Source of the DNA: Botryllus schlosseri | Taxonomy: Eukaryota | DNA length: 64,000 nucleotides | Direction of reading: 5' to 3' | NCBI GenBank assembly: GCA_051294905.1 | Contig: CM119373.1 | Coordinates: 37,572,001 to 37,636,000 of the forward strand | Shown: positions 4,125-62,969 of the stretch, piece by piece | Numbering within the stretch: position 1 is the stretch's first letter | Layout of the letters: the number at the start of each line of letters is the position of its first letter | Made by a program: the position numbers and the translations under genes | The notes under the pieces: generated by a model | The model's input: the letters and a program-made list of their open reading frames with translations, nothing else | Told to the model about the DNA's origin: nothing | Database searches by the model: none

Positions 4125-5195
4125 CTATTTATACAAATCCGAGACCCAAGAATTAAATTTAGACGGATAACCCAACCATTTTACAAGATATTGCGTTTTC
4201 TTTCCTTTCCTGCGAGTAGACAGGATTTTTTCGATATTGTAAATATTATTATTTTTAGTTATTGGTTGTAACTCTTCACGCTGAAAGCGACCGTCTATAA
4301 CTTCACCATGGTAGTCTTTCAATTGATAAGTAGGAGGGTCACCTTTACGACATTGAGATACGAAAAAGATTTCTTCGGTCCAACTCGCCAAGGCACTTTT
4401 TACAAAATTACCACGTGATTTCGAAATCCTGACGGGTGTACCTATAGCTAGTTTGGGTTTTTTAGGGGTCATGTCAACGTATAACCTATGGAAAATTTGT
4501 TCTTGATTCGAATAATTAACATCCGCTGGAGGACACCCTATAGCAACGTGAAAAGTAGTGTTATACCCCCGGCATATCTCAGACAGGACACTGACATAAT
4601 TCAAAGTCTTATTATGCGTGAAATAACGGTATAACACTTGCTTCAGAGTACGAATAACACGCTCGCATATCGATGCTTTCAGTTCACTATTTGTATGAAA
4701 ATGTCGCACATTGTTCTCTTTTAAGAAAGTCTGAAACGCACGATTAGTAAACTCAGAACCTTGATCACTTTGAATAACATGAGGTATACGATTCTTAAAT
4801 ATTTCCTTGAATCCGCGAATAATACCTTGCGAGGTTTTGTTTTTGAGTGGATACAGATATAAAAATCGACTGAAACAATCGATCGTCACCAACACATATT
4901 CAAAATTATCGTTTTCTTTTGAAAGATTTTGCATATGCATGAGATCGGTTTGATACTGAACACCGAGACCGGACGTAATCACTCTAGGTCTCTTAAATTT
5001 CTTTCGATAGGGAAAATGTTTTGTGTACGCATCCTTGCTCGAAAGAAACTCCTTGACTTTGGCTCTATTCCGCCCTCTAGAGAATACGTATGCACCGCGG
5101 TAACTACCAGGTAGCCCTGGTGTGAAATACTTAGTATGGCTCCCATCCGTATCGTCTCGGGGTCTTGGGTGTACGACCACTTTTCGTCTTGGCAT
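4125..5195 (-). CDS. int: Retroviral-like DDE integrase (c-integrase) with C-terminal chromodomain, 356 aa
   Basis: QYQTDL (D), QSDQGSEF (D), ICERVIRTLK (E); chromodomain YNIEKIL...YLVKWLGYPSKFNSWV. Confidence 0.95.
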   Translation of the reverse strand: MPRRKVVVHPRPRDDTDGSHTKYFTPGLPGSYRGAYVFSRGRNRAKVKEFLSSKDAYTKHFPYRKKFKRPRVITSGLGVQYQTDLMHMQNLSKENDNFEYVLVTIDCFSRFLYLYPLKNKTSQGIIRGFKEIFKNRIPHVIQSDQGSEFTNRAFQTFLKENNVRHFHTNSELKASICERVIRTLKQVLYRYFTHNKTLNYVSVLSEICRGYNTTFHVAIGCPPADVNYSNQEQIFHRLYVDMTPKKPKLAIGTPVRISKSRGNFVKSALASWTEEIFFVSQCRKGDPPTYQLKDYHGEVIDGRFQREELQPITKNNNIYNIEKILSTRRKGKKTQYLVKWLGYPSKFNSWVSDLYK

Positions 5196-5526
5196 GTTGG
5201 GTCTTTACTTTGCTTCGTTGGCTACTCGGTGATGGTTTAGGAATCCTTGATGGTTCACCCTTGATCAGGCGTCGCAGTGCGTCCAACTCACTAGCCGAAA
5301 ATAGATTCCTTTGTTCTGATATATCGATTTTCATCGGTTGATTAAATGTGTCGTGTTTTGTTTGATAACGATTTAGTGCGTCGTTATATAAGGCTAATTT
5401 TCGTTCTTGGGGTATGTTCATCTGTAATATGTCGCTCATACATTTATCGATATCCAAATTCAATTTCTGAACTTCAACCTCGTTGATCGGGTTCGGAGTT
5501 ATGAAGATTTTTTTGAAAGAAGTCAT
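5131..5526 (-). CDS. Conserved Maverick hypothetical protein (PM-like position), 131 aa
   Basis: Lies between PW-like gene and integrase; LDIDKCMSDIL...ERKLALYNDALNRY helical core; identity by synteny only. Confidence 0.6.
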   Translation of the reverse strand: MTSFKKIFITPNPINEVEVQKLNLDIDKCMSDILQMNIPQERKLALYNDALNRYQTKHDTFNQPMKIDISEQRNLFSASELDALRRLIKGEPSRIPKPSPSSQRSKVKTQHAKTKSGRTPKTPRRYGWEPY

Positions 5527-5870
5527 TTTTTGAAAAGATTACCGAGTAAACCAGTGACGACGGGTAGGATGCTTGATAATAGAGTCATAAACATACCCCC
5601 ATTCTGATTAACCATACGTTTTTTATGTCGAATAGGGATGTCTTTCCTGACAAGTCGACGTAAACTACATTTATGAGCTGATAGTCGCTTTCTTTTATAC
5701 TTTGAAAGAGGGATGTTGCCGTTTAAAATGTTCTTTGTACAATCGCATATACACTCGATCAATTCTTTGCTGGCTCCCGATATAATTTGCTTGCGTATCT
5801 CGGGTTTACTTTTATGTAGGAACTCTAGTGTGGGTATATGCCGCCGTGTCCGAGCTGGTACCTTGGTCAT
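5523..5870 (-). CDS. Basic PW-like protein with C-terminal amphipathic helix, 115 aa
   Basis: RKQIISGASKELIECICDCTKNILNGNIPL...QNGGMFMTLLSSILP pattern recalled from Maverick genes adjacent to the ATPase. Confidence 0.7.
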   Translation of the reverse strand: MTKVPARTRRHIPTLEFLHKSKPEIRKQIISGASKELIECICDCTKNILNGNIPLSKYKRKRLSAHKCSLRRLVRKDIPIRHKKRMVNQNGGMFMTLLSSILPVVTGLLGNLFKK

Positions 5871-5895
5871 TTTGAGTTTAAAGTCGTCTCCGCGC

Positions 5896-5908
5896 TTGGC
5901 TATTTATA
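5896..5908 (-). promoter_or_regulatory. TATA-box motif TATAAATAGCCAA upstream of PW-like gene
   Basis: ~26-38 nt upstream of ATG 5870; identical 13-mer at 13184-13196. Confidence 0.55.
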
Positions 5909-6515
5909 CCATCGGGCTATAAACCACCATGGTTTCACCAGGAAATATATTGGTCATAACTCGTCGATTTTCAGGTGCTTCTTGCGTGAGATCGAGGAAT
6001 AAATAACTATGAGGTTGTCTAGCAGCGTCACGATAAGCCTCTGTTAAAAATCTAGAGTTTGGGTACATTTGTCGACCAAGAAAACTGATCTGTTGTTGGT
6101 CGCGCGGATTCTTGAAAATCACCATATACGAGCTTGAAAGACTCAAGTCACGTGCTCCTTTACCCTTGTGATACAGGTTCTGCGTGATATAGCAAATTGA
6201 CTTGGCTGAATGATGAGAAAATCTTGTAAAGTAGTCTGCAATTTTCGCGGTCTCAGTCATGAAATCATCCACTATAATCAAGGTATCTTCAGAGCAAACC
6301 TTCAACTCTTCTAAAATATCTAGACCGACGTGGAATTCTACATTATGCATCGTCTTGAAAACCTCCTGATAATTATTGTAACAATATACGACCCTGGATA
6401 CACTAGGTTTAATCATTGATGTCGCATGCCTAATCAGCTTTGCAACAAAAGTAGTCTTCCCACTTCTTGAAGGACCACTCACAATACACGCGAATGGGTG
6501 AATCAATTCCATCAT
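5904..6515 (-). CDS. ATPase: A32-like FtsK-HerA DNA packaging ATPase, 203 aa
   Basis: Walker A GPSRSGKT, Walker B LIIVDD, ITQNLY, YLFLD motifs. Confidence 0.95.
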   Translation of the reverse strand: MMELIHPFACIVSGPSRSGKTTFVAKLIRHATSMIKPSVSRVVYCYNNYQEVFKTMHNVEFHVGLDILEELKVCSEDTLIIVDDFMTETAKIADYFTRFSHHSAKSICYITQNLYHKGKGARDLSLSSSYMVIFKNPRDQQQISFLGRQMYPNSRFLTEAYRDAARQPHSYLFLDLTQEAPENRRVMTNIFPGETMVVYSPMV

Positions 6516-6557
6516 TTGTTGTTTATTGAAACTCGATAAAGTGCATGTGTTTATATA

Positions 6558-7026
6558 TCAACAAGGTTGGGAATATCCACTGTTGTAGTCATCTTGTTCT
6601 AGTGGAATATATAAACCCGGTAGAGTTCGATTTAACAATTTTCCCCGGGTTATGAAATCTTCATCTGTCCCTCGTAATTTCGTCAGTGGAAGTTGTAGTG
6701 TTACAAACGCTTTATTAAGGTTGTCAAGCAGCTGATCCCAATCTGCAAAATGAAAAATCGCATAAGAGGATTCATAACACGAGAGGATTCATAGCGCTTT
6801 AAAATCTAACAGTGTTACTATAACAACTATAGATCTCACCTTTTAAACACTCTTTTAAATCTTTATGTTGTGTCGATACGCGTTGTTCGTATAATTCATG
6901 CGATATCTCTCGATTCAAATACAGCTCCACGAAGTGTACATGATCGCGGCGTTGTACAAGTGTCTTTTCGTGTAACCGAGTCAGACCTGCTTGTTCCAGA
7001 AAAGCTATTATGTAATCACTAGCCAT
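6558..7026 (-). CDS. Two-exon hypothetical protein, 123 aa (exon1 7026-6840, exon2 6742-6558)
   Basis: Acceptor tttttacag|ATG at 7026; donor AAG|GTGAGA at 6840/6839; acceptor ttttgcag| at 6743; phases match and give an open frame ending ...YSQPC*; exon2 not in the ORF track. Confidence 0.7.
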
Positions 7027-7178
7027 CTGTAAAAACAAGACACAGATATCAGAAAATATTGTTACTAAAATGTTTCCATTACAAGTTGACATTTCGAAAA
7101 CACCCACAGATTGTAAACAAAGTTTCACCTAAAACTATCAGTGTTCACCGCAGATTATGTTCACAATGACCAAGAGAA

Positions 7179-7673
7179 TCATGTTTGCAAAAAATCATCG
7201 GTTGTAGCAGCACTACTTTCAGAGTCAGAACGAGGTCGTTTCAAACTGTTTGCGACTCTATGTTGATCAAGGAAAAATTGGAATTTTCGATGTCGCTTGC
7301 GGGTTCTCAAGTAGGCTTGTCTCTCTTCGTGACCGAAAAGCGGTATCCACGAACAATTTTTTCCCAAGACCACATAATTTGTCAGCTTTGCTCTGTTGAA
7401 TAGGATGTGGTTATCACTCGGCATCTTTCGATCAGGAAATTGTAGTTGAAGTAGCGCTTCTATGCAGACACTTCGGACACGGGTCCATTTCTCGTCTAGT
7501 TCCTGACGGCGCGCCTTGGATCGATCGGGTATCGTGCGGTCTTGTGAGTTGTCGTCGGTACCGTGAATCGAGAGCTGTGTTAATTCCTGCTCCAGTTCAA
7601 GCGTCTCTTTGTGCAAACTATTTAAATCCAATTCTGACATTACTGACTCAATATATGAAATAGCGTTATCCAT
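7179..7673 (-). CDS. Hypothetical protein, 164 aa from ATG 7673; paralog of 6558-7026
   Basis: Acceptor tttgttttccag|ATG; gap-free motif spacing shared with 6558-7026 protein. Confidence 0.7.
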   Translation of the reverse strand: MDNAISYIESVMSELDLNSLHKETLELEQELTQLSIHGTDDNSQDRTIPDRSKARRQELDEKWTRVRSVCIEALLQLQFPDRKMPSDNHILFNRAKLTNYVVLGKNCSWIPLFGHEERQAYLRTRKRHRKFQFFLDQHRVANSLKRPRSDSESSAATTDDFLQT

Positions 7674-7786
7674 CTGGAAAACAAATGACACATCAACACA
7701 TAAAAAATACAACTAAATCATAATAATAGCAGACACACAGATAAAATACAATAGCACACAAAATATACAATTACGTCACAATGGTA

Positions 7787-10700
7787 TTACACATTCAATG
7801 GCAGGGTTGACACACCATCCTCGAGCACTCGGCGTTTGGCATAGAAATAGGAAAATGTTTTACGCTGTTGTTTGTACGTATAGACACCCCTATCTCTGCA
7901 CCGAAACCCCTTGTTCACTCCCCCGACAGATTGCCTAGATGTCAAGACACCCAGAAAAGTTTCGAAATCGACTGGGTTGGATTTCTGGAGGCCTTTGGAA
8001 GCTAATTTTTTCTTTGGTCCATCACAAAAGTAATTTTTGGATTGGAGCCCACAGAAGGATGTACCACCTTCGTACTCCACTTTCATCAAACCCGGTTGAC
8101 GAAGGTAATACGCATACGTGTCTTTACAACACTGTCTCGATCGGTCAAAAGAAACCGGATCAGCCAAAAACTCAGTTCGGTGCTCGTCACAAAAATAGCG
8201 TGGAAACCAGTTCTCGTATTCCACATAAAATTCATCTCTTTTCTCGGGGATAAGGATATCGTCGAATGAGGCTGAGTGCGAAAGATAGAGAGAGTCCGTG
8301 TCCATCATTAATAGCATGAAGCACTCGTCACGGAAATATTTACACAAGCAGTCATAAAAAAACGAGAGCATCTTAAGCTTAGCATTGTTATAAACCCAGA
8401 ACCCCACTTGAATACAGTTACCCCACTTGATCGTTTTAGGTCGCTTCGTTACTTCAAATAGATCAGCGTTCAATTCATCATATTTCACAAAAAAGCGATC
8501 CTCAACATTGCCATCCAATTCACTTTTATCACAGTAGGTGGTTCGTTTGAATTTACGTGGATTCATCAAGACCCGGCCATAGCTGCTATTTCCGGCTAAT
8601 TTTTGCGTCAGGGCAATGATCTCTAGGCTAGGGTCACGATCTCCAGCACGTCGACAATCCGAGACATTTTTCGCGAAGGTGTCAAAACATGTCTTTTTGG
8701 TGAATTCGACCGCCTCATGAATTTTGGATATAATCAATCCGTGTTCAACATACCACTTGATCAAGTCGGAGGTCAACAAGATTTTCTTACCCCAGTATGA
8801 AGCAACTAACATGCGCGTGGGTTTGGTGAGTAATTTGCGATCAATGGCGAACTGTTTCATTTGACCTGACAAATGCTCGCGAGACACCATTGTATTTTTG
8901 AATATCGGACATAGTTCAACAAACTTCCTTTGCAAATGTTTTGGTGTAAAAATATCGACTGATAAACATCCAAAGAATGTACCGGTCATTACCATCTCCA
9001 TCAATTTATGCGCGGTGACAGACTTGGTTCGAGTCAATTGCGATTGAATTCCATCAAGATATCGCACAATATCAGGATTTTCCTGTTTCTCCGTGCGCCA
9101 GTCGCATTCCCATTTACATATGACTTGATAATTGAGGCTTTTGTAATAATCATGAACACGTTTAGTTCGTTCTCGACGTTCCAAGTCATCACAACCAAAT
9201 CTGCATTGATGCGCGTGAAAATGACACCCAAGAAAAGACAAGATTACCCCTTGACCAGCCGAATTACGATAGAACCCATCAGCGGGGTAATTACGGGCTC
9301 CTACGCGGATTTCAGGTCCATTAAAAGCATGGTGGACATGTACATTGTGAATATATGAATACCAGTTTAGCCATTGAGCTGCTGTCTCCCCCCATTTCGG
9401 TGCGGTCTTGACAGGTTTGAATTTAGTACACTCAGCATCGAGTGGTTGCCAATGTACCGGGAAACCAGTTGGACTAGGTTCACTCAAAGCAAAAAGGTAT
9501 AACGAATTGCTGTCCAGCCCTGTTACATGTTGGGTGATCTGAGCGTTTTCCTTATGAAAAAATTCTTTGATTCGAGTTTCACCCTGTTTTTGATATCGAT
9601 GGAAAATGACCGACGGCCCACCCACTAAATTGTCTCTGAATAGTGAAACCAGGTCTTGGTGTTTATCATTGAACAAGGTGAAATCGCGTGGGATGCTATT
9701 GAAAAGATGCCTCGATACAACCCCGGGTAGGGAGACAGCTTCTTTGAATATATCCACACTGAATTGACTTTTGAAAGATTGAAATTGTTTTTCTAACCCC
9801 TCAATGAAGTAGTGAGTATCGATTGCGTTGTACCATTTGAGATAATCACGTAAGGTTGTCATTTTGTTATCGTTCCAAACCTTCAAACAGTTTTCATATT
9901 CAGCTGTGGATATATTACGATCTTCTAGTGAGCTGTAAAAGTCGCTGTGGCTAGGAAGACTCGGATAATCTAACTTTTCCAAACTAGTCAGAAACTCGTA
10001 CGGAAAATGACCTTTAGCGGCGCTACATTTGAAGGCTTTCAAATAAGCATCGTACGAGAACCCGGGTGCCAAGTAATTTACAATGTCCAAAAATTTAAGT
10101 CTGTTAGTTGTCAACGAGAGGAAGTTGTTACCTCGTTTCAATACATTCAGATTTTCATCAACGAGTAAACCCATCAAGTACTCTTTGAGACAGTTCAAGT
10201 CATACCGACCACCATTGAACGATAAAACAGGGATTTGTTTTAAATATCGCATAAACTCCTCTTGTAAACGTTCAAGAGGTATTTTTCTTTCGGAAGGATC
10301 GAGCGCTCTCATTTCGGTAATTTTAGTTTCGAGCATGTCCAAGTAGTGTTGATATTCCGTCAGTAACAATCTGAATGACTCACTTTGAATATCATGAAAA
10401 TGATCAACCATTTCCGCACACAAGTCATTTGGGTCACCGTTCGAGACAATTACATACGGCTCCAAGAACCCTTCCACATTAGAAGAGATGCTAACCGAAA
10501 TGGGAATATGTTTACACTCCCATGAAGTTTTGGAGGAATCTGGAATATCACACTTTTCAAACATGCTCTCTATGTCGAACGCGATACGGTATTTGAAATA
10601 ACGAAGCTGGTGAGGAACAAACACCCCTTCTAAATCAAGCTTTTCAAAGATGTTCAGAGGAGGTGTATACACGCCACCTGGAAACACTTCAACGACACCC

Positions 10701-11629
10701 GTTGTACATTTGTGTCTGGTCAATTCATACTGTTCGTTAAATAATCGTAGACAAACATCACATTTATAGGTCTCTATATACCGCCTCATGTCAGTAATGA
10801 GACAGAAGTGTGCATTTTCTAAATGTAGGTACACAGGTTTCCCTTCAAACGTACTACGTCGGAGAGCGCTAGCTTTACCCTCTGTCTTGGTGTACACGAT
10901 TATAGCAACATTAAACAAATCCTCGATATCGTCCAACATGTCAAGAGTTACACCAGATTCTACATTGATCCCACAAACCGAAGTGAATTGTTGAGCCAAT
11001 GCTTTGGCATCTTTGCCCAGTGAGTGGGCGATGCAACGAAAAGCGCACAGATTGTCCTTGTACAGATGTCGATTGGGTCGACTTAACATTGTCAAGATGC
11101 ATTTCGATTTTGTAAGCCATGTCGGTAGCTTAATACCAGCACAACCAATCAGTAAATGACCCGTAGGGTATACATAAAACTGGACATTGGTCAGACAGAC
11201 TGGCAGTGACTTTGTATCTACTCGAGAGTTTTGTAACAAATCAAGTGCGGTTTCCAAGCGAATAGATTCAACAAATTCATCGAATTCAGGTAGTGTTGAA
11301 ATTAGCGCCGGTGTTTCTAATACACTATCGATGTTTGCCGAAGCATGAAAATACCGAAATCTCAGAGTCTCAGTGTGATATAAAATGAAGGCATGTGCGT
11401 AGTTCACTTTAAAGGTATGTGACTCGGAGAAAAATATCGCTTGGATATCGCGGTAAACATCCGTTAGCTCACGATCGATAACTCGAATATTATACACATG
11501 ACTGGTCTTTTTCACTACATACGATTTTATCGCTTGCCAGTTCTGATTTACAACTTCTTGGCGTTCGTCACCGATCTCTGGTGGTGCATTCTCTTCTTCG
11601 CGAACACGATTCCGTCTGCGTCGACTCAT
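7787..11629 (-). CDS. pPolB: Protein-primed family B DNA polymerase, ~1280 aa from ATG 11629
   Basis: Exo I AFDIES, Exo II FNGGRYD, Exo III YNAIDT, motif A DSNSLY, motif B KLAGNSSYG, motif C MDTDS; no internal stops; acceptor ttttacag| abuts ATG. Confidence 0.97.
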   Translation of the reverse strand: MSRRRRNRVREEENAPPEIGDERQEVVNQNWQAIKSYVVKKTSHVYNIRVIDRELTDVYRDIQAIFFSESHTFKVNYAHAFILYHTETLRFRYFHASANIDSVLETPALISTLPEFDEFVESIRLETALDLLQNSRVDTKSLPVCLTNVQFYVYPTGHLLIGCAGIKLPTWLTKSKCILTMLSRPNRHLYKDNLCAFRCIAHSLGKDAKALAQQFTSVCGINVESGVTLDMLDDIEDLFNVAIIVYTKTEGKASALRRSTFEGKPVYLHLENAHFCLITDMRRYIETYKCDVCLRLFNEQYELTRHKCTTGVVEVFPGGVYTPPLNIFEKLDLEGVFVPHQLRYFKYRIAFDIESMFEKCDIPDSSKTSWECKHIPISVSISSNVEGFLEPYVIVSNGDPNDLCAEMVDHFHDIQSESFRLLLTEYQHYLDMLETKITEMRALDPSERKIPLERLQEEFMRYLKQIPVLSFNGGRYDLNCLKEYLMGLLVDENLNVLKRGNNFLSLTTNRLKFLDIVNYLAPGFSYDAYLKAFKCSAAKGHFPYEFLTSLEKLDYPSLPSHSDFYSSLEDRNISTAEYENCLKVWNDNKMTTLRDYLKWYNAIDTHYFIEGLEKQFQSFKSQFSVDIFKEAVSLPGVVSRHLFNSIPRDFTLFNDKHQDLVSLFRDNLVGGPSVIFHRYQKQGETRIKEFFHKENAQITQHVTGLDSNSLYLFALSEPSPTGFPVHWQPLDAECTKFKPVKTAPKWGETAAQWLNWYSYIHNVHVHHAFNGPEIRVGARNYPADGFYRNSAGQGVILSFLGCHFHAHQCRFGCDDLERRERTKRVHDYYKSLNYQVICKWECDWRTEKQENPDIVRYLDGIQSQLTRTKSVTAHKLMEMVMTGTFFGCLSVDIFTPKHLQRKFVELCPIFKNTMVSREHLSGQMKQFAIDRKLLTKPTRMLVASYWGKKILLTSDLIKWYVEHGLIISKIHEAVEFTKKTCFDTFAKNVSDCRRAGDRDPSLEIIALTQKLAGNSSYGRVLMNPRKFKRTTYCDKSELDGNVEDRFFVKYDELNADLFEVTKRPKTIKWGNCIQVGFWVYNNAKLKMLSFFYDCLCKYFRDECFMLLMMDTDSLYLSHSASFDDILIPEKRDEFYVEYENWFPRYFCDEHRTEFLADPVSFDRSRQCCKDTYAYYLRQPGLMKVEYEGGTSFCGLQSKNYFCDGPKKKLASKGLQKSNPVDFETFLGVLTSRQSVGGVNKGFRCRDRGVYTYKQQRKTFSYFYAKRRVLEDGVSTLPLNV

Positions 11630-12150
11630 CTGTAAAATTAATAACATGCGGTCAAATTCAGCACTTGGGGAACATTAAACTAGTCTTACTTACATTCTAG
11701 TTTCTTCGCCGGTGTCTTCCTGGATTCTTTATGCTTAATAAAACAAGCAACACATCATACTATGTTCGCTAACATAGTGTTGTAGCAGATAACTTACCAG
11801 TAGACTCGTGTTTTCAACTTGAGTTTGCTCCGTCTGTCAACAACATAGAGAATTACATCATGTTCACTAGTTCTGAACAGCAATAACTTACCTATGCAAT
11901 TCTTTACTTCAATTTCGATGCTTGTTTTGGCTGTAGGATAAACGAATAACATATTATATTCATAAATCAAAGTAGTCATACCGAATAACTTACTAATTAA
12001 CTCCTTATCCAGCGATCCGCGTTCGAATATACCCAGACAGTCAGTCACGTTGTTCGCTGCTCGACACCCGGAGAGAAAGACCTAAACCGCTGATTCGAGA
12101 TTACAAGAGCGCCAGCACCACTAGTGGTTGCGCTTTTAGAATCTATTGTT
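11630..12150 (-). other. Putative multipartite non-coding 5' leader of pPolB (introns 11931-11993, 11834-11891, 11734-11797, 11630-11693; micro-exons 11892-11930, 11798-11833, 11694-11733)
   Basis: Four GTAAGT donors each paired with a pyrimidine-rich (Y/T)AG acceptor 58-64 nt away; exons lack ATG, every intron contains ATG. Confidence 0.7.
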
Positions 12151-12225
12151 TATTTATGGCTCTAATGTAAAATCTGAAACGGAAAACAGAAATTGAGAAT
12201 AGACACTCACAACAATGAAAATTAT

Positions 12226-13107
12226 TCAGCACAAATTATACTTCAATTTCGTTCTAATTTCTAGAAGTCGATGCAAGTACTCATTGGTTGCGGTATTTAA
12301 TTCAGGTTGAATCTCATCAAGACTCCAACGCTGACCCTTGACAGTGAGCAATCGTTTGATGTCAGCCATGAGCTTTGCGACAGTCAAATTTTTTTTCTCC
12401 GTCAACGAATCAACATAACATAGTATTGAACCTAAATGCGGCTTAACAACGTCAATAGTCTGAAGGTAGGTGACCATCTTGTCAACTGTGTATTGACATA
12501 ACTTTTCTTCCTGCTTCTTTTTTCCCTTCACGTCGTCGCGAAAATCATCGTCACTCGCGCTTTTAGATTTCACAGGTTTCTTACCAACCTTCTGTCTGGG
12601 TTCGGTACGATTCAAATTTTTCGATTTCCCATTACGAAGCTGTTTAGCCGGTGGTATGCCCACCGTTGTCGATATGGTTCTTTTTCGAGTTGGCTTGCCG
12701 GTTGATACAGATTTAGGAGTATCAGTCACCGATAGCGACTCCGCGGGGCGCGGTATCGTCATCCCAGAAGTCGACGGTTTCTCGGGATTCGGTAATTCGT
12801 TGCTAACGGCTGTCTCGTCGGTCGGTACACACGGTATCGTCACCAAGTTCGTGAGATCGTTAATCGCGCTTTCTCTAGCTAGTTGACCCGACTTCAACCA
12901 CGCCTGGCGCGCTATATCTGTATAGTTTGACTGCATTTCGATCGTTGCCGTAAGGTCGCGTTCTGCGGATTCTACTCTTAAATCCGACGTCATCAGATCA
13001 CCAGGATTAATCGCATCAAAGATATCCGCGTTCTCTTCAAATTGTGATTCGAATGCATTTGGTTCATAACCAAATTTATCAAGATTATCTATCTGAACCT
13101 CGGTCAT
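12226..13107 (-). CDS. Hypothetical Maverick protein, 293 aa (acidic N-terminus, S/T/P and basic linker, helical C-terminus)
   Basis: Long intact ORF with upstream TATAAATAGCCAA; no recognisable domain. Confidence 0.7.
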   Translation of the reverse strand: MTEVQIDNLDKFGYEPNAFESQFEENADIFDAINPGDLMTSDLRVESAERDLTATIEMQSNYTDIARQAWLKSGQLARESAINDLTNLVTIPCVPTDETAVSNELPNPEKPSTSGMTIPRPAESLSVTDTPKSVSTGKPTRKRTISTTVGIPPAKQLRNGKSKNLNRTEPRQKVGKKPVKSKSASDDDFRDDVKGKKKQEEKLCQYTVDKMVTYLQTIDVVKPHLGSILCYVDSLTEKKNLTVAKLMADIKRLLTVKGQRWSLDEIQPELNTATNEYLHRLLEIRTKLKYNLC

Positions 13108-13183
13108 TGTACAATAATTAATCTAACTGCTCCAACCAACGTTTATGTCTGCGACAGCGAAGTATAACAATCAGATCGCGGTG

Positions 13184-13196
13184 TTGGCTATTTATA
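13184..13196 (-). promoter_or_regulatory. TATA-box motif TATAAATAGCCAA upstream of 293-aa ORF
   Basis: Identical 13-mer to 5896-5908. Confidence 0.55.
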
Positions 13197-13201
13197 GATT
13201 T

Positions 13202-13289
13202 AATTCGATAGTAGCACGCGGCCGGATGGAAAATAATTCGGCGCGCAGGTCATTCGAAATATAGGCCGCACGCACACTGCGTAATCCTC
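13202..13289 (+). repeat. ~88-bp direct repeat, copy 1
   Basis: cgatagtagcac...cgcaggtcattcgaaatatagg.cgcacgcac...tgcgtaa.tcctc also at 15013-15098. Confidence 0.85.
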
Positions 13290-13570
13290 AGAACCGATCG
13301 CGTTTCCTAATTTCAGAACCGGACGTATTTAGTGTGTCACACAGGTCAAAACGCGGTCGCGGACATCTGTTTTTTCAAAATCGCACAGCGCACTGCGCTT
13401 TAGTGAATTTCCTGTTTAGCGAAACGGGCGATTTTATTGCGCCACACATGTCAAACGCACCCGCCAACATCTGTTTTTTCGAAATCTGAGCGGTGTATTT
13501 CACCATTTTAACACATTGTGGTGTCATTCTCATGGTTTACTTTTTCAGTTGATTGTTACATATACTCGTT

Positions 13571-13924
13571 ATGGCAACTAGCGCGATTATTGAGAATTAC
13601 CTTCTCTACTATCATAACTTGACAACCCCCATATTGAGCGAAACGGAAAAATTCATCCACGGAGTACTAGATTTCTATGTACATGGAGAAAACGTGAGCC
13701 GTGTTCGAAAGTGCGATTTTACCGCATTGGTTAACTCGATTCGATCATACGGCATCGACTGGAATGGGGTTTTTAGTGTCATAAGCATTGCGGCGATGAA
13801 AAGTGACATACGCACCCTAGCGGTGTACAGAGATTTAGCAACAGACATCTTGAATACTCACTACAGTACATTGATAAGTGACTGGGTACGAAGAAAATTC
13901 ATTCGTGTCGTTTGTCGCTTGTGA
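13571..13924 (+). CDS. Candidate Bcl-2-fold protein, 117 aa
   Basis: F.ALVNS.RSYGIDW.GVFSVIS aligns without gaps to BH1 ([23 protein letters not shown] of Bcl-xL); ISDWV resembles BH2; ATG 13571 follows acceptor tttttcag at 13548. Confidence 0.45.
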   Translation: MATSAIIENYLLYYHNLTTPILSETEKFIHGVLDFYVHGENVSRVRKCDFTALVNSIRSYGIDWNGVFSVISIAAMKSDIRTLAVYRDLATDILNTHYSTLISDWVRRKFIRVVCRL

Positions 13925-14086
13925 ACGGTATCATTTCTTACAGAACTCCTGTAAAGTTTATTTCAATCCAAGTCTATTCACGCGGGTCATCAGGATTATA
14001 CAAAGACTGTTAACTCACTCAATACCACGCACCTAATTCTATAAATATCGACGGATTTGTTGATGACTCTCACTTTATCAAACGAT

Positions 14087-14698
14087 ATGACATCGAACAG
14101 CGTCAGCAGTATGCAAGTCGGAGCAGTTTCAAATTTTCACGTCGGTGTCAAATTCGTCTCATCGCCCAAAAGAGGTGGCGTTAGTCAATATCTCAAAGGT
14201 ATATTCATCGACGGCAATAACGAAGAGATATCTTTCACGTGTTTCAATCGTGAATTGTTCGGGATCATTGAGAAAGCATTCTCCAAACGAAAAAAACTCA
14301 TGGTCAAATCCGGTTGGGTCCAAATTGACAAGTTTACTGGAAAACCTGCTGTATTACTGGGACGGGCTTCGTCAGTAACTCTGCATGGAAAATCGAGACA
14401 TACGACTGAAGAATACCCATTATTGACCTGTGAATCAGTATACGGAAATAAAGATGAATACGTCTCGATCGCCGCTACTTGTGTTTCTGGAGAGGAGAAG
14501 ACGGTCAATTCTGATGCCGGAAAGGAGTTGAAATTATACAGTTTTACATTGAAGGATGATACTGGTGAGGTGGTTTTGGACCAATGGAACAAAGCCTCGC
14601 TCGTACCCGGGAAGAAATATCAACTCACTCGTGTTAAAAACTGTGTCGGCAGCTTGAAAATCGATTCGTTAACTGGACTTGTTGAATTGAAAGAATAG
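14087..14698 (+). CDS. Tandem OB-fold, RPA/SSB-like single-stranded DNA-binding protein, ~203 aa
   Basis: C-half KTVNSDAGKELKLYSFTLKDDTGEVVLDQW...GKKYQL is an RPA-type OB signature; N-half has a similar FIDGNNEEISFTCF strand pattern; TATAAATA at 14040-14047. Confidence 0.6.
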   Translation: MTSNSVSSMQVGAVSNFHVGVKFVSSPKRGGVSQYLKGIFIDGNNEEISFTCFNRELFGIIEKAFSKRKKLMVKSGWVQIDKFTGKPAVLLGRASSVTLHGKSRHTTEEYPLLTCESVYGNKDEYVSIAATCVSGEEKTVNSDAGKELKLYSFTLKDDTGEVVLDQWNKASLVPGKKYQLTRVKNCVGSLKIDSLTGLVELKE

Positions 14699-15012: not shown

Positions 15013-15098
15013 AATCGATAGTAGCACACAGCTGCATGAGAAACAATTCCGCACGCAGGTCATTCGAAATATAGGTCGCACGCACTGCGTAAATCCTC
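15013..15098 (+). repeat. ~86-bp direct repeat, copy 2
   Basis: See 13202-13289. Confidence 0.85.
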
Positions 15099-36275: not shown

Positions 36276-38675
36276 TGTTGCGGTCGCTGAACTGCCTATG
36301 TGATTCTGTGTAAGCTGTCTTCCCTTGAACTTACAGCGCCGCAAAGTCCTATAAGTTTCCCGATGTAAATATACGCGATCTTGAAGTACGGTAGAAAAGT
36401 ATATTGCTTGAAGTTCCAATTGATCGAATTTCCTTATATCCAAATTATAATACGACACAGTAGTAGCACGAATAAGATATTGTCCCAATAAGATCGGTAA
36501 ATACAGTGCGGGAACGTCCGGTGGGCCAATTACTATTGACAAACTGTACCCTATCACAGCTATATCCAGAATATTCCCTTAGACCAGACCAGGAAGTATC
36601 GTCAAGCATACGCCATCTAGCGAATACAAGTATGGCTCCTAAATTATTGAACCCCCTAAGATTAACATGAAATGCCCACAGTAACAATCCCCACCAAAAA
36701 AGTTATAAAATGACAAAGAACTTTTTTGCAAATTAAGTTAAACATCAGTCCATTAGTGGCTTCTCGTCGCTGGAATCCTCGGTAACTTCTTATGTAGAGA
36801 GAAGCACGACCAATTTGTGGCTAGGTCGTTCCAAAAACTGCACATCGTTGATTCTTCTTCCGTACTCATCAACCCATCACCGTCTAAAAATGGATCCGGT
36901 TTGTACAATGGACTACCTTTCTTCACAACATAACCGTTCAACTTCGATGAATAATCAAGACGTTCCATTTCTTCATGAAATAATTCACTTCGAAAGTTTT
37001 TCAAGATGATCATTTCTGCCTTTGACAACCTTTCAACTGCGAGAGAACTGTTTATCTTTGCTGATAGCACAGCTGCAGTCATTTCCATCCTTGGAATTAA
37101 AACTTGCTTCACTGGTGCAGCTATCGATTTTGACATAATGAGATTGCAATGAGCCTTTCCTTTGAGTAATTCCCTTCCAATTTGAACCTTATCCAAATTT
37201 GCATCAACATGATGGCTCACATTGGCCCCGTCGTTACTAGGAGCTCCATCCATCACATTTTCAATGTTATCCAGTACACTACTCGGTGTCGACTTCCGCC
37301 CTCTATCAATTAGCCTTTGCAAGTCTCGTTGATTCTGAGCCGACAGGTCCTTCATCTTCTGCTCGTTGTCTCGTTGATTCTGAGCCGATAGGTCCTTCAT
37401 CTTCTGCTCGTTGTCCCGTTTCATTTGTTCAACCAATTTCGCAGTCTCGCTATCAAGAGAGTTCAAATCTTCTAGTACAGCGAACCTATTCCGTCTCGGA
37501 GCAGGCTGAGTCGACTTGGCCTTCAATTGGCCGTTGTATTCATCCAAATAATCCTTTACGTCGTAGCCAGTCTCTGCTACATGATCTTGTATATCTTTGA
37601 ACGAACGAGAAAATGCTATCAATTCCTCTTGCTCAAGTCGAGGCTCAAGGTCTCTCCAAAAACCTTGCAATTCCCCAAACATTCTTTGCATCTTCAAATA
37701 AGCTTTGGAAACCTCATCCTGATTGTCCCCAGACTCTATCAGGGAATTCAAACCTTTGCAGTCTCGCAATAACCATTTGACACGGAAGTCAAACTCTTGC
37801 TTCATGTTTTCAAATACTGCGGAGGTTCCTCTAGTTCTCCTGCCCGTGCCCGATATCACAGTGTGACCATGCTTGTAATCCTCGGCCATGATTCTATAAG
37901 GATCCGAATCTACGTTATCTTCACCCCCCAAAGTAGAATTCCTCGAATTAACACCATTGTGGCCAACACCAGAAGCCTTTCCAGACTTCTTCCTTTTACC
38001 AGGAGTCATTATGAAAACTAGAGTACACCAACTTACTGTTTCCTCCAACAGAAGTGTGTCCTTTCTCCAATATCAGTATAAATGAAGCAAGTCCTATTAC
38101 CGGCACCAATCCACACAATATGGAATTGTCCTTTACTTATGTACCGATAGTCGTCCTGTGTTACTGTTCCGCTTCCTGGCGTTGAATTGTATATTCCAAT
38201 ACAATACTCCACCAAGGGACCTTTGTTGTGTTTACTCCACGACCGGACCTTTAGCTGTATTTACTGTTGCGGTCGCTGAACTGCCTATGTGATTCTGTGT
38301 AAGCTGTCTTCCCTTGAACTTACAGCGCCGCAAAGTCCTATAAGTTTCCCGATGTAAATATACGCGATCTTGAAGTACGGTAGAAAAGTATATTGCTTGA
38401 AGTTCCAATTGATCGAATTTCCTTATATCCAAATTATAATACGACACAGTAGTAGCACGAATAAGATATTGTCCCAATAAGATCGGTAAATACAGTGCGG
38501 GAACGTCCGGTGGGCCAATTACTATTGACAAACTGTACCCTATCACAGCTATATCCAGAATATTCCCTTAGACCAGACCAGGAAGTATCGTCAAGCATAC
38601 GCCATCTAGCGAATACAAGTATGGCTCCTAAATTATTGAACCCCCTAAGATTAACATGAAATGCCCACAGTAACA
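36276..38675 (-). mobile_element. Internally deleted BEL/Pao LTR retrotransposon, 2400 bp
   Basis: 411-bp TG..CA LTRs (36276-36686, 38265-38675) with no difference found by eye; 5-bp TSD TGGGG; purine tract GGTGGGGA before 3' LTR on minus strand. Confidence 0.95.
36753..38048 (-). CDS. Mosaic gag-like / RNase H / integrase-region remnant ORF, 431 aa
   Basis: Helical gag-like N-terminus; AHCNLIMSKS.AAPVKQVLIPRMEMTAAVL (BEL RNase H region); LSKAEMIIL...KGSPLYKPDPFLDGDG (RNase H-integrase linker); FLERPSHKLVVLL* BEL C-terminal motif in another frame. Confidence 0.75.
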   Translation of the reverse strand: MEETVSWCTLVFIMTPGKRKKSGKASGVGHNGVNSRNSTLGGEDNVDSDPYRIMAEDYKHGHTVISGTGRRTRGTSAVFENMKQEFDFRVKWLLRDCKGLNSLIESGDNQDEVSKAYLKMQRMFGELQGFWRDLEPRLEQEELIAFSRSFKDIQDHVAETGYDVKDYLDEYNGQLKAKSTQPAPRRNRFAVLEDLNSLDSETAKLVEQMKRDNEQKMKDLSAQNQRDNEQKMKDLSAQNQRDLQRLIDRGRKSTPSSVLDNIENVMDGAPSNDGANVSHHVDANLDKVQIGRELLKGKAHCNLIMSKSIAAPVKQVLIPRMEMTAAVLSAKINSSLAVERLSKAEMIILKNFRSELFHEEMERLDYSSKLNGYVVKKGSPLYKPDPFLDGDGLMSTEEESTMCSFWNDLATNWSCFSLHKKLPRIPATRSH

Positions 38676-58046: not shown

Positions 58047-61000
58047 TCATTCAAGCTCAAGACGACACAACTTGCGGATGTCGCGACTATAAGTACCAGT
58101 GGGAGTACGCACAGTAACTTTTCGAACCAGCCCATGGCCATCCGGAAATGTTTGTTCAACTATGGCTTTCGGCCATTTACCACGGGGTACAGAGGAATCA
58201 GCCATGAGTTCCAGCCTGGGAGTGCTTGGGGCATTCTTCGGCATGACTCTAGAGATTCCTCTGACGAAAGAAACGTGAACCTGTCCGTCAGGATCCTCAA
58301 AACGGATGTAACAACAGGCAGAATAACCATGTGTGCTGGCATCAGCAAATGCATGGAGCTGAATATTCACTGGCGAGAAACCAGGCGGCTTGTAGCATCT
58401 GGGAAACGACAGCTTTTCGAGTTCTGGGAGTGAGCCGACCCATTTTTTCCATTTTGCTTTGAAACTGTCGTCGATCGGTGTGTCCCAATCCAGGTCGTCA
58501 CGAGATATTTTCTGTAGGAGCAGTCTTCCCGGTAACAGGAACGGGCTTAGATATCCGAAGGGAGTGTAGATCTGAGCTATCTGGCTGGCGATGCCTCTTC
58601 GAGTAAAAGGCTTAGGTTTGATGTTAGTACAGGCGCAAAGTGAGTCCTCATTCATGTTCCAGATAATTCCCAACGTACGTTCGTTACCGGAATTTGTGAA
58701 GTCGAGATCCACCAGGTTGGCAACACGGGCGTCTTCGGGAATCCGCGACATGATCTCGGTCGTGCCGCTAGCAAATTTTGTAAGGTTGAAACCGTAGTGA
58801 GCGAAAAGTGTTCGCAGCTCTTCGATGACTTTGATCGAAGTTTCAAGGTCGTCTGATGGATGTAGTATGTCGTCGACATATGTGTTACGTAAGATACAGT
58901 CAAGCGTAGGCTTGTCGGCACTGGTGCCGTTCAAAAGAACGATCTGACGAAGACAGAATTGAGCAACGCATGGTGAAGACGTGCTTCCGAAGACATGAGA
59001 CGTCATCTGGTAATCCATCGCTTTTCCATCTAGTCTGCTGTCTTCAAACCAGAGGAAGCGTAGGCTATCAGAGTCTTCCGGATAGGTCTGAATTCTCGAG
59101 AACATCTGGGCGAGATCGGCAACCCAAGCGTACCTGCCCATACGAAAACGGCATGGTACTCCAATTATAGAGGAGTTGACGTCAGGCCCGCTGGGCAGTT
59201 GACTGTTCAAACTGATGCCCGAGAATTTGCGGCTCGCGTCGAATACGATTCGCATCTTCTGTTGTCGGGTGTGGAAATGGATGAGATAAAAACTCCTTTC
59301 GGATGAAGGAAGTAGGTCGGGCGGGACTACCCGTGCATAGCCTCGAGACAGGTATTCGTCGATTTTTTCTTTATACTTGCGAAAGAACTCAGGATCTTTC
59401 TGGAATTTCAAGCGTTGGTTTTCGAGCGATTTCTCGGCAGCTCCATGATTATATGGAAGCTTCACTTCTTTCGTTCTCCATGGAAGACCGACTCGGAAAC
59501 GGCCGTTCAATATGTGCGCGGTTTCTTTCATAGTCGACAGAGCTTGTTCGTCTTCGATCGAATTTTGCGATTCATAGGGATCAACCCAAACGTCCGAAAA
59601 ATCAGCGTTACAACTAGAGCAAATTGGCAATTTTGGCGACTCATATCGGTTAAAAATGGTATTCTCGGCATGCACGAAATTCATATCGATAAAATTCACA
59701 ATATTGGGCTTAAAGCCAGATTTGACAAGGGTGCGGTCGGCGCCAGCAAGGGACCAACCGAAAACCGAGAGCTCGGCACCGGGCAGACCATTTTTGGGCC
59801 TGATGATTTCTGTATTTGGGTACTGCATTAGGAAATCTTTTCCTATGACAAGGTCGACGTCATTCGTATCGGCAACCGGTATGTTAATATGACTGAGGTG
59901 ATCACATTTAGAAATAGTATCAACATTCGGCGTATGATTTTGCACATCGGGAAAATGAGAAGTCGCGAGCACATTTTTTATATCGATAACTGTGCTTTGA
60001 TCAAGGGCTTGCACAGTAAGAGAAATCACTTCTACCTCCCCTTCGAAAACGCCACCCGCAGTCGACGTTTCACAAACCATTCGATCACCCTGGATATTTA
60101 ATTTTTTACGCAGGCGGTGTGTGCACAGAACATGACCACAGCCTGGGTCTAGGAATGCGTTGGTGACCACTCTAACATTTGAATCGGGGGAGGTGATTAT
60201 AACCGGTACAACAGATAACCGCACGGGATTTACTTTCCCGTTTAGCCAAGATGACATCGTGTTGACGTCAGCGGTTATTTTATTTTGAAAACCCCCATGA
60301 AGTAGGGTGTGATGCGACGCTCCGCAGCCGCTGACGTAGCACTTGCGATCTGACTTGCACGTACGGGCTTCGTGCCCGTAACCCAGGCAGTTGGCACATA
60401 CCGGCTTTTCTTCTACAAATTTCTTGCGTTCGGCTGGAGTCTTCTGGTGGAAGAGGTCACATTGGTAGAGCGGGTGCGAGTCGTCGCAGAGGTGACAGCG
60501 AGGCGTTGGCTTCGTACGTGAAGAGCTTTGTCTTGGTTCGTTAGTGACAGCGACGGGACGATCGACGGACGTTGCATTCACTTGCGTCTTTCGAGGTGGA
60601 AACTTGGTAGCTCTGGCGAACGGCATGCTCGACACGAATTTTCCGAGTCGAGTTCTTGACGTACCAGCTTGTCTACCAACGAAGGTGACAAAATCTTTAA
60701 ACTGCGGCTCGTACCCGTTTTCCATCTTTTCTTCATACTTGCTAGAGAATTTTTGTATGAAGTGGCGGGGAAAACGCTTCATTATCGCGTCAGAGACTGC
60801 CGGTGCATTTACTTGGGCCATTGCGCCAAGTTGCGAGAGGATGTGGTTTGCCGACCGAAGCTGATCATAGGCCCCAGCCAGTTCACGATTATCATTAGGG
60901 TTAACATCATCTCCATGCATCAATTCATCAATGAAAGCGTCAATAACGTAGGAGTCTCGGCCAAAGCTATCATGTAGGACGTTACGGGCATGTAAGTATG

Positions 61001-62969
61001 CGTCCTCGCCATACCGATTAGCACTGCAGCCAGCAAGTGCGGATTTAGCGTCGCCCGTACAGTACGATATCAGCTTGTTAAGCTTGGTACGGGCGTCGTG
61101 CCTTTCACTAGGATTGGCATTTATGGGTTCAAAAGCACTATCGAATTCGTTCATGAACCGGTAATAATCTCGCGGGTTGCCATCGAAACTGGCAATTGTA
61201 ACAGTGTTGAGGTCCATGCTACGCTTCATAGAGCCTAACATGGAATTCACCGAGGCAAGATAGGGGTCGTTATTACAGTTCGCCGGGCTATCCGGTGTCA
61301 TTAGGACGGAAGGACCGTAATCGCGCGGTTGATAGGGGCCAGGAGTGATACTACTGCGGTTATGTACGGCATTACTATAGCCAGAAAGCGCGAAATCTCC
61401 TTGCTCTCGATACCGGGGAATAGAACCGTCGTGCTCGGAAAACGAAAAACCGTCCGGGCGGCGGTAACTAGTCATTAATCGATTGCGAGAATGAGAGCGA
61501 AGATCGTCGTGCGCGTTCGGCACAGTACGAATATCGGCGGGTTGACCGCGAGAATGAGAACTAAGATCGGTGTGCGCGTTCGGCACAGTACGAATATCGG
61601 CGGGTTGACCGCGAACATGAGAACTAAGATCAGTGTGCGCGTTCGGCACAGTACGAATATCGACGGGTCGACCGCGAAAATGAGAACTAAGATCGGTGTG
61701 CGCGCTCGGCACAGTACGAATATCGGCAGGTTGACCGCGAAAATAAGAATTATGATCGGTGTGCGTGTTCGGCACAGTACGAATATCGGCGGGTTGACCG
61801 CGAACATGAGAACTAAGATCAGTGTGCGCGTTCGGCACAGTACGAATATCGGCGGAGTGGCCGTGAGGACGATGAATGGGATCATTGTGCATAGTAAACA
61901 TGAAATCGTTTTGCCGACGATGAATATCGGCGAGCGTATTACGAGGATAAGAAATATGTTCATTGACAAAACGTTCACCCTGCCACTGCGGAGTGCTTCG
62001 AGGGTCTGAACGAGTGGCCGGCCCAGCATCTAGACTACGCGAACAAACAGGCTGGGAATGCGAGCCTAGCTCCCTAGCCTGGTAACTATAGGTATCCGCT
62101 GCGAAACTGACGGACGGGCGACAGTTACGATTAGGGTTTTGAACTAGATCATGCGCGACTTCTACCTTACTTGCTTGTGCGGTTGGCTGATGGTTGGTTG
62201 TCAACGATTGGGTTACCGCCGGCTCGTTAGCCAGTCTTTGCCCAGTACTACTGCCTGTTGCAGACGCTGGCGTTCCCCAGGGAACGAACCACGATGCGTG
62301 AGTAGCAGCCAAATTCAAAGGTTCAGTACTCGCAGCAATGTTTTCTGTGTCGGAAATGATCGACCCTCGTGATCCGATAGAACCGGCAATTGATGCTTCT
62401 TCCTCGGCGGCTTCCAAGTTCGAGGTAGCTTCGAGAACCTCAAATCTACCTTCAAATTCGGCATCGATTGTAGCTCTTCTCTGTTCTTGTCTCAGTTTAA
62501 TCCTCTCGAGTGCCAGTCTAGCGTTGCGGACTGTTGCTGGTGTTCTGGACGGCGTGACGGAATGAAGACTTGATGGTTTCTTCGAAGTTTGGGCATTAAT
62601 GTAGTCGATGGTAACTTCGGAAGAAGAGTTCGTGCTTCCTTCTTGGTAGGATTTGTAGGCGTGACGTGCATTGACCTGTGCGCGTGAAGCTGTTGCGAGC
62701 AGCTTTTCTATTTGTGGTATCCAATCTCGAAGGGCGTGATCCTGTTCAACGCTTCTGACCAATCGGTCCAAGTCGGCGGCGACTTGAACGCAGAGTTCTT
62801 CTAGTTCGTCTCTGAACTTGACAACGTGTTTGATGGGCGAAGCATTATCGATAGAGGAAATGAAAGCACGTTCGACTTTCAGGAGAGCGGCGCTGGAATT
62901 TTCGAGGACCTGGTCGATATACTGCTTGCTCCGGTACTGTTGATCAGCAGCTTGCAGTGTTGTATCCAT
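58047..62969 (-). CDS. gag-pol: Gag-protease-RT-partial RNase H polyprotein fused to the integrase C-terminal tail, 1640 aa
   Basis: FDGNPRDY gag domain; three Cys/His knuckles (CHLCDDSHPLYQC, CANCLGYGHEARTC, CYVSGCGASHHTLLH); protease AFLDPG; RT FGSTSSP, TYVDD; RNase H LHAFADAS...PRLEL; then directly PRGKWPKAIV...DGHGLVRKVTV...RDIRKL. Confidence 0.93.
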   Translation of the reverse strand: MDTTLQAADQQYRSKQYIDQVLENSSAALLKVERAFISSIDNASPIKHVVKFRDELEELCVQVAADLDRLVRSVEQDHALRDWIPQIEKLLATASRAQVNARHAYKSYQEGSTNSSSEVTIDYINAQTSKKPSSLHSVTPSRTPATVRNARLALERIKLRQEQRRATIDAEFEGRFEVLEATSNLEAAEEEASIAGSIGSRGSIISDTENIAASTEPLNLAATHASWFVPWGTPASATGSSTGQRLANEPAVTQSLTTNHQPTAQASKVEVAHDLVQNPNRNCRPSVSFAADTYSYQARELGSHSQPVCSRSLDAGPATRSDPRSTPQWQGERFVNEHISYPRNTLADIHRRQNDFMFTMHNDPIHRPHGHSADIRTVPNAHTDLSSHVRGQPADIRTVPNTHTDHNSYFRGQPADIRTVPSAHTDLSSHFRGRPVDIRTVPNAHTDLSSHVRGQPADIRTVPNAHTDLSSHSRGQPADIRTVPNAHDDLRSHSRNRLMTSYRRPDGFSFSEHDGSIPRYREQGDFALSGYSNAVHNRSSITPGPYQPRDYGPSVLMTPDSPANCNNDPYLASVNSMLGSMKRSMDLNTVTIASFDGNPRDYYRFMNEFDSAFEPINANPSERHDARTKLNKLISYCTGDAKSALAGCSANRYGEDAYLHARNVLHDSFGRDSYVIDAFIDELMHGDDVNPNDNRELAGAYDQLRSANHILSQLGAMAQVNAPAVSDAIMKRFPRHFIQKFSSKYEEKMENGYEPQFKDFVTFVGRQAGTSRTRLGKFVSSMPFARATKFPPRKTQVNATSVDRPVAVTNEPRQSSSRTKPTPRCHLCDDSHPLYQCDLFHQKTPAERKKFVEEKPVCANCLGYGHEARTCKSDRKCYVSGCGASHHTLLHGGFQNKITADVNTMSSWLNGKVNPVRLSVVPVIITSPDSNVRVVTNAFLDPGCGHVLCTHRLRKKLNIQGDRMVCETSTAGGVFEGEVEVISLTVQALDQSTVIDIKNVLATSHFPDVQNHTPNVDTISKCDHLSHINIPVADTNDVDLVIGKDFLMQYPNTEIIRPKNGLPGAELSVFGWSLAGADRTLVKSGFKPNIVNFIDMNFVHAENTIFNRYESPKLPICSSCNADFSDVWVDPYESQNSIEDEQALSTMKETAHILNGRFRVGLPWRTKEVKLPYNHGAAEKSLENQRLKFQKDPEFFRKYKEKIDEYLSRGYARVVPPDLLPSSERSFYLIHFHTRQQKMRIVFDASRKFSGISLNSQLPSGPDVNSSIIGVPCRFRMGRYAWVADLAQMFSRIQTYPEDSDSLRFLWFEDSRLDGKAMDYQMTSHVFGSTSSPCVAQFCLRQIVLLNGTSADKPTLDCILRNTYVDDILHPSDDLETSIKVIEELRTLFAHYGFNLTKFASGTTEIMSRIPEDARVANLVDLDFTNSGNERTLGIIWNMNEDSLCACTNIKPKPFTRRGIASQIAQIYTPFGYLSPFLLPGRLLLQKISRDDLDWDTPIDDSFKAKWKKWVGSLPELEKLSFPRCYKPPGFSPVNIQLHAFADASTHGYSACCYIRFEDPDGQVHVSFVRGISRVMPKNAPSTPRLELMADSSVPRGKWPKAIVEQTFPDGHGLVRKVTVRTPTGTYSRDIRKLCRLELE
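61491..61858 (-). repeat. 63-bp tandem repeat x6 encoding 21-aa units in gag N-terminal region
   Basis: ctaagat recurs at 61561, 61624, 61687; units ADIRTVPNAHTDLSSHVRGQP. Confidence 0.95.

Follow-up and report, generated by a model that had tools for sequence, protein, structure and literature searches.

The window analyzed here is a 64,000-nt stretch of the Botryllus schlosseri genome. Its portion from 1343 to ~15430 is a Polinton/Maverick whose genes are ordered along the minus strand: ORF1, a protein-primed B-family DNA polymerase (pPolB), two small genes (g7673 and g7026), an ATPase, an integrase with a chromo domain, more ORFs, and a cut capsid gene. Positions below refer to this strand unless stated otherwise. 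The pPolB (7787-11629, 1280 aa) matches PF03175 (E 5e-7, 29.4 bits versus a cut-off of 25.8), and a homologue search returned 13 matches at 32-47% identity. The retroviral-type integrase (4125-5195) matches rve (E 1e-15) and carries the chromo domain. The window copy is 3'-truncated, with its break at 1343 inside the capsid gene, and lacks a protease-like ORF and the right terminal repeat. Terminal inverted repeats of 784 and 801 bp (>99% identity) were found in both siblings checked. Both also have a capsid-like ORF of 423 aa. In one sibling, this ORF scored 0.98 in the Atlas against clusters in which 14-30% of the members carry PF21738, which identifies the double-jelly-roll capsid; the ORF itself had no Pfam match and no match in a phage search. 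Behind it, both siblings carry a 167-aa ORF with no Pfam or PDB match, in which a pattern of H, D, Q, and C seen by eye may correspond to an adenain-like protease motif.

At least 26 copies of this element (family A; 91-95% identity) were scored in the genome assembly (G000, 495 Mb), which also contains more distant families; 130 of 255 candidates were scored. Sibling comparisons below use 19 of the 26 scored copies, or 20 when the window copy is included. Outside the element, Pao/BEL-type retrotransposon frames occupy the minus strand at 58047-62969 and 36753-38009 of the window. Between ORF1 and the left end of the element there are two plus-strand ORFs with no Pfam match, at 13571-13924 (117 aa) and 14063-14698 (211 aa). 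A 71-nt direct repeat (86%) occurs at 13205-13275, just before the TATA box of ORF1, and again at 15015-15085 in the left terminal region; it is possibly a promoter element.

The early region opens with a TATA-like box, TATAAATA (13189-13196), ~90 nt before the ORF1 ATG, a putative promoter of the early unit. ORF1 (12226-13107, 293 aa) belongs to no Pfam family and is likely the first cistron; families B and C have homologues of it in the corresponding position. Past pPolB, a U/G-rich spacer of 113 nt (7674-7786) leads to g7673 (7179-7673, 164 aa, intronless), and a 152-nt spacer (7027-7178), likely the g7673 3' UTR, leads to g7026. The latter consists of exon 1 (6840-7026, 187 nt), a 97-nt GT-AG intron (6743-6839), and the coding part of exon 2 (6558-6742, stop at 6560-6558), giving a spliced product of 123 aa. 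The joint 6742-6840 was seen in 53 reads of RNA run X24, 3 of X22, and 2 of X23, and in contig sets X1, X2, and X3. Directly behind lie a TATA-like box and putative promoter of the ATPase gene (6550-6557, overlapping the g7026 end, kept in 19/19 siblings) and the candidate packaging-type ATPase itself (5904-6515), the first gene past the early unit, which has no acceptor before its ATG. The ATPase matches Pox_A32 at E 0.007, below the cut-off, and P-loop families as well. Within just 46 nt (6560-6515) lie the g7026 stop, this TATA box, a poly(A) signal, and the start codon of the ATPase, so the early 3' end overlaps the start of the next gene.

The two small genes are paralogues. Compared with spliced g7026, g7673 shows 21% identity over 118 aa (E 2.7e-5), and family C has just one gene, with a start like that of g7673 and g7026 exon 2 behind it. 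Sequence comparison thus suggests that they are likely duplicates, each headed by its own acceptor. Searches with g7673 gave no Pfam and no Atlas match, and none of 33 candidates in a homologue search reached E ≤0.01.

Introns ahead of the polymerase gene

The pPolB ATG is preceded by a leader of four exons, read from contigs of three studies (sets X1-X4). We took these contigs to be RNA, which their canonical spliced joints support. Exon 1 (11994-12173, with a probable 5' end at 12173) uses a donor at 11993 in an X3 contig. Intron 1 (11931-11993, 63 nt), whose GT and AG are kept in 19/19 siblings, is removed in X3 by a joint 11929-11994 with one other letter. Exon 2 (11892-11930, 39 nt) is followed by intron 2 (11834-11891, 58 nt; joint 11833-11892 in X2 and X4), exon 3 (11798-11833, 36 nt) by intron 3 (11734-11797, 64 nt; joint 11733-11798 in X2, X3, and X4). 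In X2 and X3, a 37-nt variant of exon 4 (11694-11733, 40 nt in the window) stands between exon 3 and the pPolB ATG (joint 11629-11798 with exon 4 between). This variant joint removes intron 4 (11630-11693, 64 nt), the acceptor of which abuts the ATG.

The spliced leader exons amount to 295 nt if transcripts start at 12173. They contain no ATG, which rules out a coding role, whereas each intron has 2-3. An upstream ATG at 11647 falls within a leader intron and is present in 0/19 siblings. Among the joints listed for these contigs, pPolB is the one gene to which the element splices its own leader in cis. The original prediction of one leader (donor 11693) spliced alternatively to three gene bodies, as in adenovirus, is not supported: among the listed joints, exon 4 leads to pPolB alone.

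Two other joints in the contigs are not splicing. A joint 12888-11628 (X1 and X4), a candidate for splicing from ORF1 to pPolB, is non-canonical at its ends and is present at the DNA level in loci L035 and L049, where ORF1 codons 1-73 have been fused by a genomic deletion to the pPolB start in a 235-aa frame. A back-joint in X1, 12000/7635, is explained by variant copies in the genome in which the leader cassette is duplicated. In such mosaic elements (L035, L046, L049, and L050), an incomplete start of pPolB precedes a second leader with four introns, behind which pPolB is complete; this second cassette opens with a g7673-like stretch. In the distant families, L039 and L041 have sequences resembling acceptors 7-15 nt ahead of the likely start codon of pPolB; judging from these sequences, splicing ahead of the polymerase gene may be general in this host.

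A fourth acceptor (AG at 12175-12174) lies directly before 12173, at the end of 52 U-rich nt (12174-12225, 52% T) past the ORF1 stop. It is strong and unpaired, with no usable donor; cis-splicing from 12210 to 12174 was rejected because the intron would be too short (37 nt) and its donor is missing in L037 and L038. The AG is kept in 17/18 covered copies, and families B and C have an equivalent acceptor. An AATAAA follows the acceptor, at 12154, in 4/18 aligned copies. Raw runs and contigs gave no read support for a spliced leader at 12173. In L046, L049, and L050, the extra leader cassette starts behind a g7673-type acceptor whose ATG is replaced by GTG, as if any acceptor of that kind could start the leader. 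The predicted site at 12173 may put a host spliced leader on the pPolB message too.

Acceptors of the small genes and the host spliced leader

Each small gene begins directly behind an acceptor. As originally described, a T-rich tract plus CAG stands immediately before the ATG at 7673 (AG 7675-7674) and at 7026 (AG 7028-7027), with TACAG|ATG at 11629. The two spacers are rich in U, with T making up 54% and 41% of their sense strand (29% in pPolB), and neither contains TATAAA. A strict filter (10/14 pyrimidines, 7 T, YAG|ATG), which was chosen after the sites were seen, matched only these two sites on the element minus strand from 13300 to 1301. Shuffled sequences gave a mean of 0.2 matches, with at least 2 in 9/500. 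AG and ATG at 7673, 7026, and 11629 are kept in 19/19 sibling copies. We regard this conservation alone as a weak test at ~7% divergence and the distance between families as a stronger one. Family B (3 loci; 68% identity to family A in pPolB, 58% in g7673, and 38% in g7026 exon 1) has YAG|ATG at both small genes in 3/3 loci, and its spacer before g7673 measures only ~50 nt from stop to acceptor, versus 113 nt in the window. In family C (5 loci), the one hybrid small gene has the acceptor in 5/5 and the ATG in 4/5.

Four raw RNA runs were aligned to 5000-13500, with 3-12% of each run read; X21 gave 0 reads. Loose ends in X24 reads start behind 7028 (70 reads, with a depth of 83 at 7017) and behind 7675 (15 reads, with a depth of 23 at 7667). 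Loose ends at the two sites share the same majority letters, with an agreement of 0.79 and 0.96, respectively; at 0.79, not all 70 ends at 7028 need be the same leader. Beyond the shared piece, the reads continue into what we take to be the end of a template-switch primer, so the piece is the 5' extremity of the cDNA. It corresponds to a leader of stolidobranch ascidians. It is absent from the window and from 20/20 element loci, and occurs in 254 exact copies elsewhere in the assembly, versus 0 for a control sequence. AG|GT follows directly in 101 of the 254, and several of the first ten copies examined have a short hairpin and a stretch resembling an Sm site. These exons are dispersed over the chromosomes (loci L021-L030 and 244 further matches) rather than forming one array, and their downstream parts vary. 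The sequence is that of the 'Chordata 1' spliced leader (SL) exon in Table 1 of PMC3795323, a match that points to a tunicate host.

We are highly confident that SL trans-splicing takes place at both acceptors, 7673 and 7026. Host SL trans-splicing had been offered originally as the alternative to the shared leader, and X24 reads place the SL directly at both starts. The SL ends in AAG, so the joined message has it as the whole 5' UTR, with a purine at -3. These junctions come from one run of one study. Among the ends listed for the four contig sets there was no SL end, with 138 further loose ends lying beyond those listed, and the two single-cell runs barely reach the 5' ends of the small genes. 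We rejected family C as the origin of the SL-bearing reads at 7675, since over the first 50 nt its identity without gaps is ≤66%, versus a cut of 88%. Meanwhile, at 8 of 13 sites checked, reads carry letters missing in the window copy where 18-19/19 siblings have them. Expression is therefore established for family A and not for the window copy, which keeps all signals.

Could the junctions be chimeric artefacts of the library, or trace back to a single aberrant copy that is fused to an SL gene, with the acceptors being chance low complexity? The single run fits this explanation, as do read variants at 7667 and 7017 found in 0/19 assembled siblings and the dispersal of SL-like sequences through the genome. 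Against it, both genes, which are separate, have the junction precisely at the AG, the acceptors are kept across families at 38-58% protein identity, and 20/20 element loci have no SL match. We find it scarcely credible.

The same reads bear on alternative cis-splicing of the adenovirus kind, with one leader going to pPolB, g7673, or g7026, and all messages ending at a common poly(A) site near 6500. There is indeed a multipartite leader that is spliced in cis and ends at the pPolB ATG, and long-range splicing may occur (2 reads; see below). Yet the junctions 11694->7673 and 11694->7026, and any from another leader donor to these two genes, were absent from the joints listed in 7/7 runs with cover, and SL-type ends make up 70 of ~83 and 15 of ~23 reads at the two sites. 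Joints were listed only from at least 3 reads and leader depth in X24 is ~1, which leaves room for a minor leader route. Such splicing is very improbable and would be, at most, a minor route beside the SL.

Organization of transcription

We then considered how the small genes come to be transcribed. First, no AATAAA lies between the pPolB stop and 7673, as had been noted, and the gap is far wider: the hexamer is absent from 12000 to 6717 (5.3 kb) in the window and in 19/19 copies. Over this interval 3.2 would be expected, and 14 of 500 shuffles had 0. Second, the candidate poly(A) signal named originally is present at 6527-6522 in 19/19 copies, likely closing the early unit, and an AATAAA stands at the same position in all 8 loci of families B and C. 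Another AATAAA, at 6716-6711, lies within coding sequence. Third, TATAAA precedes ORF1, the ATPase, and the genes at 5870 and 4115, and neither g7673 nor g7026. The predicted 3' end near 6500 holds approximately: depth in X24 is 15 at 6501 and 0 in the bin 6136-6419, which places the end between 6501 and 6420.

Reads through the region are consistent with linkage of the genes. X24 reads cover the spacer between g7673 and g7026 (12 at 7053). Two X22 reads join 11538 to 6740 over 4.8 kb, linking pPolB to g7026 exon 2, with no exact match in the genome. Their joint has a GC donor (in 19/19 siblings) and two letters unlike the window, and may be a chimera. Single-cell reads, likely 3'-tagged judging from the presumed library type, pile up at 6615-6705 and, in X22, at 7175-7260, which hints that messages end near 6500 and towards the end of the spacer before 7026. 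A further single-cell pile at 8050-8140 was rejected as a pPolB 3' end because it stems at least partly from family C copies. The single transcription unit foreseen originally fits these data, with the qualification that a long precursor was never seen whole.

The distant families (35% pPolB identity) offer a comparison. In 7/7 loci without both small genes, an AATAAA sits on the pPolB stop and the ATPase follows. Family C is an exception to the rule of AATAAA-less upstream cistrons, with AATAAA at the pPolB end in 3/5 loci.

With the SL at the 7673 and 7026 AGs and the element's own cis leader at the pPolB AG, the region is probably one SL-resolved operon. We suggest that a single Pol II operon would be divided into separate mRNAs by host trans-splicing. 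Transcription would start once, at the TATA box before ORF1, run through ORF1, pPolB, g7673, and g7026, and terminate by way of the AATAAA at 6527. Each U-rich spacer would supply a branch point and an acceptor, and upstream messages would acquire their 3' ends near the next acceptor with no AATAAA, as in most Ciona operons. The unpaired 12173 acceptor would put the SL on the pPolB message as well.

X24 depth is ~25-95 over the small genes and 0-2 over pPolB, an excess for which internal promoters are as good an explanation as RNA stability. Each small gene might then have its own TATA-less promoter within the upstream coding sequence, with the SL only removing a short outron and no operon at all. 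Besides the depth, the AATAAA at the pPolB end in family C speaks for this, and in Ciona about half of the genes are trans-spliced, most of them outside operons, according to the available text of PMC1488885. Several observations argue the other way: neither pPolB nor g7673 has an AATAAA in 20/20 family A copies, the family B spacer leaves ~50 nt, and other element genes use TATA boxes that g7673 and g7026 do not. The reads through the spacer before 7026 and the two reads linking pPolB to g7026 count against it too. We consider separate promoters unlikely.

The operon would be of the tunicate type: the SL is on downstream genes, stop-to-acceptor spacing is 113 and 152 nt, and upstream cistrons lack AATAAA. 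A wider interpretation, which we put forward tentatively, is that the whole early region (ORF1, pPolB, and the two paralogues) might be a four-gene operon built for and dependent on host SL RNA, with the SL also at 12173. Such a lineage would be a DNA virus of animals whose caps and 5' UTRs are supplied by host trans-splicing and which could add or reshuffle genes by copying an acceptor.

Relation to known systems

There are almost no publications on gene expression of Polintons, which are relatives of adenoviruses. Here, cis-splicing, host SL trans-splicing, and TATA-driven genes are combined in 14 kb, and the virus-like element would thereby be adapted to an RNA process that is specific to the lineage of its host. 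A duplicated acceptor plus ORF would offer a route for gene gain. The element may also provide a compact, multi-copy case for the question raised by Ciona operons, namely how an upstream mRNA obtains its 3' end with no AATAAA.

The adenovirus major late unit has a multi-exon, cis-spliced tripartite leader in a DNA element of the pPolB type. The leader found here is likewise multi-exon, ATG-free, and cis-spliced; unlike that of adenovirus, it serves one gene, and other bodies receive a host RNA in trans. Bdelloid rotifers, which use an SL, harbour mobile elements (Terminon/Athena) that are polycistronic and possibly carry the SL on downstream ORFs, but these are retroelements and not DNA viruses.

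Our literature search, which left most subscription papers outside its reach, found no report of SL-capped Polinton or DNA-virus mRNAs. A C. elegans Polinton paper using the word 'trans-splicing' contained no SL or operon term, and neither did an Oikopleura Tor paper. In Hydra, the available text of a preprint (bioRxiv 10.1101/2024.03.13.584568) states that ~30% of long reads from transposable elements carry the host SL, shown for CR1 and Tc1. Maverick is among the active families there and is not shown with an SL, and, in contrast to the present case, that text describes no operon-like unit and no conserved start-codon acceptor. General background is given in the accessible portions of PMC3691228, PMC4893630, PMC4122922, PMC5240408, and PMC7943196.

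With Polintons/Mavericks (adintoviruses), as far as the available text of PMC8097293 and PMC8502044 describes them, the element shares pPolB, the rve integrase, the double-jelly-roll capsid, long terminal inverted repeats, and many young copies, with the ATPase as a candidate further likeness. Intact vertebrate Mavericks are described as intronless (PMC8097293, available text), whereas the family studied here has five confirmed introns and SL-capped genes. No word containing 'splic' occurs in the available text of PMC8097293 or in that of PMC8502044.

The closest likeness in gene expression is to the SL operons of Ciona intestinalis and Oikopleura (PMC1488885 and PMC2760879, available text), where close genes on the same strand are grouped, downstream ones take the SL, and upstream cistrons mostly have no AATAAA. 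According to the accessible part of PMC1488885, 16/18 Ciona operons have no AAT(U)AAA upstream, and trans-splicing was proposed to make the upstream 3' ends. Exact abutting of poly(A) site and acceptor is only a candidate feature here. In contrast to those operons, the present unit lies in a virus-like mobile element, and its SL lands directly on the ATG.
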